From assembly GCF_053078305.1 (NCBI RefSeq), contig NZ_CP166879.1: a stretch of DNA of 64,000 bases. One strand, written 5' to 3'. A program made the position numbers. Each line of letters starts with the position of its first letter. Within the stretch, counting starts at the first letter, position 1. This document shows positions 12,001-14,365 of this stretch, piece after piece.

Positions 12001-14365
12001 TCCACGCTTCAGGCTGGCGCAGTCACCCATATCACTGAAGAGAACTACAGCATCAGCACGGGCGGGCACATGATGGTGGTTGCCGGTACCTGTGAGCGCG
12101 ACGTGGAAGGCGACACACTGGACACCGTGGGCGGCAGCCTTACCGAAAAGATTAAGGGCGTCCGTCACAGTATTGCGCAGGCGCAGAAGCTGGTTGGCGA
12201 TACGGTGAAGCTGGGAAACGAGGGCATTAATGTACTGACCATGCTGACGGACCTTGCCGATGTGGTGGAAGAGCTGGCCGATATTACGGCATCACATACC
12301 CACCCCAAAACGGGCACGTCTCCGCAGGCCGCACAGTTCAGCCAGGTCGCTCAGGAGTGCCGCCAGCTTAAAAATAAATATTCACCAATAATCGAATAAT
12401 TATTCACTTTAACAGGCCGCGCAATGTGGCCTTTTTTATTCCCGGACAATAAAAAATATTCATCACCGGACATCACCCACCACGAAAAAACCGTCCGCAG
12501 CAGAAAAAAAGATGGACGAAACGCCCCACGTAATCCCCACGTAAAACGTCGCGTAACGCCACGTAACGAAGAGATAACCCCGCCAGCCCGATTCGATCCC
12601 CTGACATCAGAAAACGATTTCTGCGCCCCAAAATCGCCGCAAATGGCCGGAAATTTTCGGGGGCGACGTAACGCGTAAAGTGACGTAATCGGCGCTACCC
12701 CGCACACGCCTCCGGTATTTGTGTACGATAAATTTTGCAAATCGAAAGGGGTGCAAAACACCCCTCCAGGGCGCGCCATTACTGAGTTTTTCCCTTCTGA
12801 ATGGTTTTGCACTTTGTGCAAGGTTTTGCAAAAGTGTGCAAAAACTCCGGCTTTCTGAGGATCCCGAAAAATTTTAATGCACTGAATAACAAGAGATTTT
12901 TAAAATTACGTCACGATCGAAGATCTGAAAAAGGATCCGACGACGAAAACGAAAAAATCAGGAAAGCCAGAACTGGCGCGGTCTGGCGGGGAGTGGCAGC
13001 AAAAATCACTTTTGCACACTTTTGCACAACTGCTCCGAAAAAGGATGGCGAAGGGGAAGGAAAACAGCCACGTCATCCGTTGCACGTAACGGACGTAAAA
13101 GGTAAATTACGCGCGGGTGCCTTTCGGCTGACGGCTGGAAGGAATACCTGAAGGCCGGATGTGAAAAGGCCCCGAGTCAACTAACGTTAACCCGAGGCCC
13201 TGACACTTCCTACCTGACAAGTGGAAGGTTAGCGCCTCCCTGTAAAAGGAGTCAAGCGCTATGCCGCAAAAAACGATCATAGTGAGCATTTTATGCATAA
13301 CTATTTTGATGATTGTCTGGATGATACACACGTCACCGTGTGAGTTCAGGCTTAACATCATGTGGTCACAATTTGCGGCGTTCTTGCAGTGTAAACAGTA
13401 AGAAACCGCAGCGGGGGTGAAAGCCCCCGCTATCCGGTTGCCGGGTTCGGTCGATATGGCACCTTTTCTCCATTGGATTACAGACGTATTTGCCCGCGAC
13501 ATGCGGGCCTTTTTGTTCAGTTGTATTTATTGTGGTCGTTACTGGCAGTGGCATTAACTGATTTTGCATGAATAGCACAAATTTTTTCCACGATAACACC
13601 ACACGCTTCAAGGTCTTCCGGGCGTGAAACCTTTATTTTTGTAATAGTCTCAGGATTATCAGCCGTTCCACTTTGCACAACCTCAATTTCAATTTTTTTT
13701 CTTGAAAGAATCATTTTCATCGCCCCGACACAGGACAGAGTAAGCCTGTGCGAAAGAATATCACCAGTGCGATAGCGTTGTCTGCTTCAACGCCAGGCAT
13801 TGCGCACACAAAGGGAAATCAGTACATTACACGCGGGTGCCTTTCGGCTGATGGCTGGAAGGATTACCTGAAGGCCGGATGTGGAAAGGCCCCGAGTCAA
13901 CTTTAATGTTAACCCGAGGCCCTGACCATCTACCCTAAGCAAGTGGAAGGTTAGCGCCTCCCTGTAAAAGGAGTCAAGCGCTATGCCGCAAAAAACGATC
14001 ATCGTGAGCATTTTATGCTTAACCATGTTGTTGACCGTCTGGATGATACACCGTTCTCCGTGTGAGTTCAGGCTTAACATCATGTGGTCAGAATTTGCGG
14101 CGTTCTTGCAGTGTAAACCGTAAGAAACCGCAGCGGGGGTGAAAGCCCCCGCTATCCGGTTGCCAAAGGTTCGGTCGAAAGTCGCACCCTCACACAAAAG
14201 TCACAAAGAAAAACAAAGCCCGCAGCGTAAAAACTGCGGGCTTTTTTGTTTCAAAGATGGACGTTATCTGGACACATGAAAATAAAAAATCTTTATTTTC
14301 AATATGTTAACCACCCACTAAAACCACCCGCAGGCGCTTTTTAGATTCAGAAAAATTAGGTATTA

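Follow-up and report, generated by a model that had tools for sequence, protein, structure and literature searches.

Two neighbouring Hok-family loci at the serS end of a P2-family prophage are very probably hok/Sok-type modules of a 46-residue HokA-like subgroup

Synthesis of the Hok toxin of plasmid R1 is coupled to a second reading frame: translation of mok up to the Shine-Dalgarno (SD) sequence of hok is mandatory (PMC9841398). In the hokW-sokW module of Sakai prophage 5 (Sp5), the antisense RNA is complementary to the 5' untranslated region (71 nt), RNase III and Hfq contribute, and hokW helps lysis and phage release, one role for a prophage-borne hok (PMC8621323). A 2026 survey of Hok sequences (Escalera-Maurer et al., bioRxiv 10.1101/2025.08.07.668861) has described hok islets of two to six copies and enrichment in prophages, tandem islets making up 10% of Hok loci and 13.5% of chromosomal hok genes in Escherichia. 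Here we analyse two hok-like units, hok-1 and hok-2, that stand in tandem close to serS in a 64,000-nucleotide stretch of contig NZ_CP166879.1 (RefSeq assembly GCF_053078305.1), referred to below as the window and numbered from its first letter. We conclude that they are very probably two adjacent hok/Sok-type type I toxin-antitoxin modules of a 46-amino-acid HokA-like subgroup (survey cluster 82, phrog_251), which lie as cargo close to attR in a P2-family prophage integrated in the serS terminator. Since tandem islets and prophage enrichment have already been published, the pair is ordinary and offers little that is new; the exact peptides are already in RefSeq and in the published catalogue, and the loci are real but already known.

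The original prediction had described two direct repeats of about 370 bp, about 90% identical and with a period of about 721 bp, each carrying an AAGGAG SD, a 46-codon open reading frame (ORF), GC hairpins and a downstream terminator, and all of these were recovered. A repeat search of the window yielded three families of direct repeat spaced 720-722 bp apart: D1 (225 nt, 94% identity, 13218-13442 and 13940-14164), D2 (81 nt, 94%, 13102-13182 and 13822-13902) and D3 (23 nt). By gapped alignment, the units at 13102-13463 and 13822-14190 are each about 365 bp long and about 91-92% identical, rising to 94% within D1 and D2. Homology between them begins at the -10 box and does not extend past the fold-back element; the repeat thus comprises the transcription unit alone, without the spacer. 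The SD lies 9 nt 5' of each ATG (13246-13251 for hok-1, 13968-13973 for hok-2), with an in-frame TAA 18 nt 5' of the ATG in each copy; GC hairpins are present 3' of the stop codons (13409-13432 and 14131-14154), and a terminator scan returned terminator-like sites at 13492-13508 for unit 1 and 14215-14244 for unit 2. The other features are collected in Table 1.

The peptides belong to the Hok family by several measures, as their likeness to HokA/Gef toxins had suggested. Pfam HOK_GEF (PF01848) matches residues 9-44 over model positions 7-42 of 42 (E=8.5e-5, 22.5 bits); phrog_251 of the PHROGs collection matches both peptides (E=2e-18 and 5e-19); and BLASTP aligns K-12 HokA at 43% identity with both cysteines in register, the common elements being an MPQK start, WMI, S-x-C-E and an AAFL-CK end. 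M1, C12, T14, C27-E28 and C44 are conserved in both copies. The positions reported as conserved among 1264 Hok peptides (M1, C16, T18, L30, C31, E32 and E41) are recognizable in them, with two deviations: the Leu is replaced by Pro26 in both, and residue 37 is E in copy 2, Q in copy 1. The two peptides are 85-87% identical, differing at 7 of 46 residues, and the hok codons that distinguish them comprise 7 non-synonymous and 3 synonymous changes. The substitutions had been described as mostly conservative; this is true of the three I/L/M swaps but not of the remaining four (I>T, T>R, Q>E and Q>P), and so not of the majority.

Database records agree with this assignment. In a genome with the same arrangement (97.7% identity) the RefSeq/PGAP product name of both ORFs is 'Hok/Gef family protein', and under that name the exact peptides are present in a public protein collection on about 998 contigs (hok-1) and about 472 contigs (hok-2). 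In the Hok survey the copy 2 peptide is catalogue entry #1307 exactly, and that of copy 1 is one residue away from #1297; the toxicity panel of the same study included the cluster 82 representative 82_1289, which shares a 60% cluster with copy 2 and by our count is about 80% identical to it, as well as the Stx-phage relative 72_1589, neither of which was among the 3 of 45 sequences found to be non-toxic (bioRxiv 10.1101/2025.08.07.668861). The PADLOC defence models gave no match to the Hok peptides or to the neighbouring proteins.

The sense RNA, too, has the character of a hok-type mRNA, in line with the original prediction. Rfam RF01794 matches both units on the sense strand, at 13835-13994 in unit 2 (49.5 bits, E=1.8e-9) and at 13115-13272 in unit 1 (35.8 bits, E=7.7e-6). 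This model, although named for the 'sok' antitoxin, aligns with the sense strand from the 5' end of hok mRNA to the hok AUG, and not with the antisense strand. Both predicted mRNAs fold with strongly negative z-scores relative to shuffled sequences (-5.8 for hok-1, 13115-13516; -8.9 for hok-2, 13835-14252), and in both the minimum-free-energy fold is closed by pairing of a 5' GGGUGCC with GGCACC or GCACCC near the 3' end; a long-range closure of the R1 (tac/fbi) type is thus found in silico in each copy. The hok promoter pattern TTGC.C-17-TA.ATT is kept in relatives.

To these folds we added a comparison of homologs, taking 80 related loci from IMG/VR, aligning 52 distinct units with the two window copies and deriving an RNAalifold consensus. 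It comprises the 5'-3' closing helices; the post-stop hairpin; a hairpin that buries the SD, in which AGCGCCUCC pairs with GGAG(U)CAAGCGCU (helices 6 and 7, 99-100% paired in the 52 sequences); and a near-invariant 10-bp helix between AUGCCGCAAA, at the start codon, and UUUGCGGCGU in the distal coding region. Over the 52 homologs pairing extends to 98.6% of consensus cells but drops to 35-44% once partners are shifted by 1-3 columns, and 17 pairs show compensatory changes, against 0-6 in the shifted controls; 5 of the 6 pairs of the inner long-range helix (helix 2) have double changes, and none of 500 shuffles reached the consensus structure. When the 3' fold-back is removed in silico, the 5' end pairs instead with an internal (G)AAAGGCCCC box (13163-13173), identically in the two copies, a change that resembles the tac/ucb switch of R1 (PMC9841398).

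On the minus strand each unit contains a predicted Sok-like antisense gene. TTGACT, the complement of the hok SD region, and TAACCT, separated from it by an 18-nt spacer, form a promoter-like pair at what we take to be the place equivalent to that of the R1 sok promoter, with its -10 TATCCT. The complement of the -10, AGGTTA, is almost invariant in the 52 homologs. The predicted RNA begins with an unpaired 5' tail of 13 nt, continues as a hairpin of 16 bp and ends in a U tail (z = -6.1 for unit 1, -4.9 for unit 2). The patch that specifies this tail and its target is 74% identical between copies, against 93-100% in its flanks, and varies across the family more than any other 20-column window in the unit, with a mean pairwise difference of 0.380 and 28 variants in 52 sequences. 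Duplexes of the antisense 5' 22 nt are calculated at -44.6 and -44.8 kcal/mol with the leader of the same copy, against -19.4 and -21.9 with that of the sister. Since the greatest divergence between the copies falls in the antisense tail and the sequence it targets, each antidote is expected to act preferentially on the mRNA of its own copy, and the modelled energies fit copy-specific antidotes. A published RNA-seq/RIBO-seq study of enterohaemorrhagic E. coli found many Rfam 'sok' regions to be transcribed with low ribosome coverage; its data are not mappable to this Hok subgroup.

These features suggest how the modules might work. Each would be a single transcription unit of about 400 nt whose 5' end is closed upon the 3' fold-back, with the SD held in a local hairpin and the start-codon region paired with downstream coding sequence; such a closed mRNA, its SD and start codon buried, should be translationally inert at full length. 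By analogy with plasmid R1, slow 3' trimming would remove the fold-back element, the 5' end would switch to the internal box, and the leader would open. The predicted cis-antisense RNA of about 60 nt, beginning some 42 nt 5' of the hok ATG, would pair through its 5' tail and trigger decay or block activation. On loss of the antisense RNA the 46-residue peptide is predicted to enter the inner membrane and to kill or arrest the cell. The role of the modules is likely to be prophage stabilization (addiction) or assistance with lysis.

Table 1. Features of the two hok units and their surroundings, in window coordinates (a point marks features given no strand)
Feature	Position	Strand	Basis
hok-1 promoter-like site, TTGCAC-17 nt-TAAATT	13080-13108	+	7 nt 5' of 13115, which aligns with Rfam hok-leader position 1
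Predicted hok-1 mRNA, about 400 nt: leader, ORF, post-stop hairpin, fold-back element, terminator	13115-13516	+	Rfam RF01794, fold, covariation
hok-1 ORF, 46 aa: MPQKTIIVSILCITILMIVWMIHTSPCEFRLNIMWSQFAAFLQCKQ	13261-13401	+	ORF call and Hok-family profile matches
Predicted Sok-1-like antisense unit: TTGACT 13255-13250, 18-nt spacer, TAACCT 13231-13226; RNA about 60 nt, from about 13219 to about 13160	13160-13255	-	Position, conservation, fold
Hypervariable patch: predicted Sok 5' tail and leader target	13201-13221	.	Copy and family comparison
Hairpin sequestering the hok SD (AGCGCCUCC ... GGAGUCAAGCGCU)	13231-13260	+	Consensus helices 6 and 7
Fold-back (fbi-like) element, pairs with mRNA 5' end 13115-13130	13446-13463	+	Fold; consensus helix 2
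Intrinsic terminator, unit 1	13492-13516	+	Terminator scan
269-bp spacer segment with 67-aa minus-strand ORF (13517-13720)	13515-13783	.	Strain comparison, PHROG match
hok-2 promoter-like site, TTGCGC-17 nt-TACATT	13800-13828	+	Read from sequence; same caveats as the hok-1 site
Predicted hok-2 mRNA, about 418 nt	13835-14252	+	Rfam RF01794 match 13835-13994, fold
hok-2 ORF, 46 aa: MPQKTIIVSILCLTMLLTVWMIHRSPCEFRLNIMWSEFAAFLQCKP	13983-14123	+	ORF call, profiles, survey entry #1307
Predicted Sok-2-like antisense unit: TTGACT 13977-13972, TAACCT 13953-13948; RNA from about 13941 to about 13880	13880-13977	-	Fold; U tail of 3 U only
Fold-back element, unit 2	14168-14189	+	Fold, truncation refolding, consensus
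Bidirectional terminator-like hairpin 3' of unit 2	14215-14252	.	Terminator scan
attR core CCCGCAGG, right end of P2-family prophage, inside serS terminator	14327-14334	.	Shared junction core

The surroundings identify the carrier. Collinearity with K-12 (rarA-serS) stops just beyond serS, within the serS terminator, and in the closest genome a P2-family prophage of about 34 kb lies between dmsA and serS, its genes ordered as integrase, Cox, replication endonuclease, P2-type capsid and GPO scaffold, tail genes, then the two hok units. An 8-bp core, CCCGCAGG, is present at both prophage junctions and once in K-12; attL reads GCGCCCGCAGG followed by AGG and attR, in the window, CCACCCGCAGG followed by CGC, while the dmsA-side core is at 13957-13964 of the closest-genome stretch examined. 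The shared core lies outside the pair, which is therefore prophage cargo: the units had been placed between the phage block and serS, and that location has to be corrected to one inside the P2-family prophage, whose right junction is the attR core. At least two different P2-like prophages use the serS-terminator site in other E. coli strains.

Arrangements at this site vary from strain to strain. In strain 04-00955 both hok units are present but only 471 bp apart, the segment at window 13515-13783 being absent; in another strain a different P2-like prophage occupies the site, and its ogr gene adjoins a single unit of the copy 2 type. The 67-aa minus-strand ORF of the spacer matches only the C-terminal part of phrog_14142, a family of unknown function, and so is probably a gene remnant. 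A search of 13401-14365 for a copy of the att core between the units found CCCGCAGG only at 14327, so serial integration at the same site is not supported. We rate simple local duplication of one hok unit at somewhat less than an even chance, the alternative being that two modules were joined by recombination between P2-family phages. The 91-94% identity of the units favours duplication, as does the finding that in 98% of hok islets the peptides fall in one 60% cluster, read by the survey's authors as local duplication (bioRxiv 10.1101/2025.08.07.668861); but a repeat confined to the transcription unit, a spacer that is not repeated and differs between strains, the occurrence of copy 2 together with 14190-14334 alone beside ogr in the other prophage, and that of copy-1-type units alone elsewhere all speak against it.

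Whatever the origin of the pair, the proposal that its members are hok/Sok-type modules has to be set against several awkward results. The best NCBIfam model, the HokA equivalog NF007290, scores 35.9 and 37.9 bits against a curated cut-off of 89, and the Hok subfamily model NF007279 scores 25.3 and 27.3 against 73; with values so far below cut-off the peptides are HokA-like rather than HokA, and HokA proper is ruled out by the equivalog score. The RF01794 scores fall short of the gathering score of 59, though the E-values are still significant for the search, and given the sense-strand alignment as well, Rfam annotation would either miss the loci or put them on the wrong strand. Of 12 consensus positions the hok promoters match 7 and the antisense promoters 8, a weak match, and the region gave no promoter call, sense or antisense, in a consensus scan, so that the promoter assignments rest on position, conservation and analogy. 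The consensus structure was tested on the alignment from which it was derived, and the predicted accessibility of the hok SD and AUG increases only slightly after truncation.

A further difficulty is the lack of a mok frame. In neither copy, over both leaders, does any ATG, GTG or TTG open an upstream frame that reaches the hok SD, which is just what R1 requires. An AAGG with ATG or GTG at about -102 is conserved in all family members, and the ORF that starts there is ATG-TGA (1 codon) or 7 codons long in copy 1, and 19 and 14 codons long in copy 2, where it ends at -45 and -58. Of 53 unique sequences, 15 have an upstream ORF that runs past the hok ATG (60-70 codons) and 10 one that ends between -30 and 0; it ends before -30 in 25, and 3 have no such ORF. 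Either this subgroup is activated in some way other than that of R1, or many of its copies are silent.

If silence is the answer, the units could be translationally dead relics of the Hok family, making no Hok from their native mRNA for want of mok and keeping their RNA features through youth or prophage hitch-hiking. We consider this unlikely. It would be at home with upstream ORFs that stop after 1-19 codons in both copies and fail to reach hok in 38 of the 53 family members, with truncated folds in which SD and AUG mostly remain paired, and with the known inactivation of K-12 chromosomal hok loci, such as hokA, which IS150 interrupts and which has an annotated mokA. Yet 55 of 56 divergent homologous units retain an intact 46-codon hok ORF; the SD of the two copies, AAGGAG at 9-nt spacing, is strong; changes that preserve the structure keep accumulating; the exact peptides are found on hundreds of contigs; and the antisense tail seems to be under diversifying selection, which would be hard to understand in a dead locus.

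A mode of activation peculiar to the subgroup is possible, though we hold it only tentatively: the 46-residue Hok proteins may act without mok, translation being gated by RNA refolding and antisense RNA alone, and the hypervariable tail may serve as an address label that insulates co-resident copies, the two neighbours here included, from each other's antidotes. Were this so, a phage could carry independent modules for addiction or lysis one beside another at its end.

That the repeats are not toxin genes at all but phage regulatory or att-associated repeats, or that the true coding sequences are instead the 131-aa and 136-aa minus-strand ORFs that overlie them, is effectively refuted. These ORFs are the longest in the region and the repeats are near a prophage end, but across the 56 homologous units the open run on the antisense strand is anything from 66 to 139 codons long, all family matches fall on the plus-strand 46-aa ORF, and the unit occurs also far from att sites, 3' of lom in Stx phages, and on plasmids. 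We take the minus-strand ORFs to be incidental, as they had been judged in calling them spurious.

Homologous units are widespread: 198 phage records and 33 plasmid records contain them, as do 1118 of 5426 complete E. coli genomes. The two-unit query was covered to at least 80% in only 6 genomes, a count that omits at least one two-unit strain, 04-00955 with its shorter spacer. In the Stx phages inspected a hok unit lies 3' of lom, its DNA 79-90% identical and its leader the same. This lom-adjacent unit (VT2-Sakai, 2501-2867 of the stretch examined) is distinct from hokW; it is unannotated in older records (AP000363), and the newer label 'MokW-like host killing' is attached to the ORF of the Hok-like peptide itself. 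The PHROG name 'MokW-like' is likewise a family label only, sitting on the 46-aa ORF.

The neighbourhood of the pair holds other features. At 9484-12399, 3' of the tail-fibre assembly gene, are three ORFs (241, 180 and 557 aa) called 'hypothetical' in RefSeq: the 557-aa ORF has a full-length match to a PHROG baseplate protein (E=1e-242), the 241- and 180-aa ORFs match PHROGs of unknown function, and PADLOC gave no match for any of the three. Between the last baseplate gene and hok-1, overlapping a RefSeq 'hypothetical' ORF, 8 of the window's 23 TTTTGCA heptamers are packed into 294 bp (12733-13026) as direct and inverted pairs, for example TTTTGCACACTTTTGCACAA at 13010-13029 facing GTTTTGCAAAAGTGTGCAAAA at 12823-12843. 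The cluster could be a protein-binding array; over the whole window the heptamer is not enriched. Further away, at 29225-29443, two copies of CTG(C/T)CTGTACGGCAGTGAAC, spaced about 60 bp from each other, come after a tRNA-Ser(GGA) gene; Rfam CRISPR-DR4 matches one of them, and the pair looks like a minimal CRISPR remnant beside the tRNA. The minus strand at 56863-56943 matches Rfam naRNA4 (nucleoid-associated non-coding RNA 4, CssrE) above the gathering threshold.

Genes of this kind escape routine annotation: ORF tracks with a 60-aa floor miss them and display spurious antisense ORFs instead, and the Rfam sok model misses the loci at its gathering score. A widespread subgroup that lacks the mok frame essential in R1 and has a hypervariable antisense-tail region is nevertheless a convenient natural system, both for the activation of hok translation without mok and for the evolution of copy-specific antitoxin recognition.

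Comparison with the described systems brings out what is shared and what is not. Like hok/mok/sok of R1, the units encode a short hydrophobic toxin that bears a Cys-Glu motif. Their predicted mRNA also resembles that of R1: it is about 400 nt long, its 5' and 3' ends pair by fold-back, its SD is hidden, a hairpin protects it beyond the stop codon, and the fold-back element precedes a terminator. The antisense RNA predicted here would, as in R1, be encoded in cis, measure about 60 nt and have a single-stranded 5' tail, with a promoter overlapping the hok SD region. They differ in peptide length (46 aa, against 52 in R1), in being carried by a prophage rather than a plasmid, in scoring below the Rfam gathering threshold, and in the stretch that corresponds to the start of the 70-codon R1 mok, about 58 nt 5' of hok, which here is the hypervariable patch and has no start codon. 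K-12 HokA is the nearest NCBIfam relative, by the identity and motifs given above, but the peptides here are 4 residues shorter, are encoded at another genomic site, and reach 36-38 bits where the cut-off is 89. Survey clusters 82 and 72, which take in the lom-adjacent 46-aa Hok of the Stx phages 933W, VT2-Sakai/Sp5 and Stx2-86, hold the catalogue entries and tested relatives named above, and the Stx-phage units have the same leader; the survey covers coding sequences only, without mok, Sok, mRNA structure, the serS site or P2-family prophages (bioRxiv 10.1101/2025.08.07.668861). The hokW-sokW module resembles these units as a prophage-borne hok/sok module, but HokW has 51 aa, starting MKQQKAM (primer YO-357), and lies at another Sp5 site; with the in-frame TAA 18 nt before the ATG here, these differences rule out identity. 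Tandem or multi-copy toxin-antisense pairs in which differences in the pairing region limit cross-talk are also found in ibs/sib, ldr/rdl and zorO-orzO/zorP-orzP, PMC3919570 being a source for the zor duplicates; their toxins belong to families unrelated to Hok, and in the present pair it is from duplex energies that discrimination between copies is predicted.

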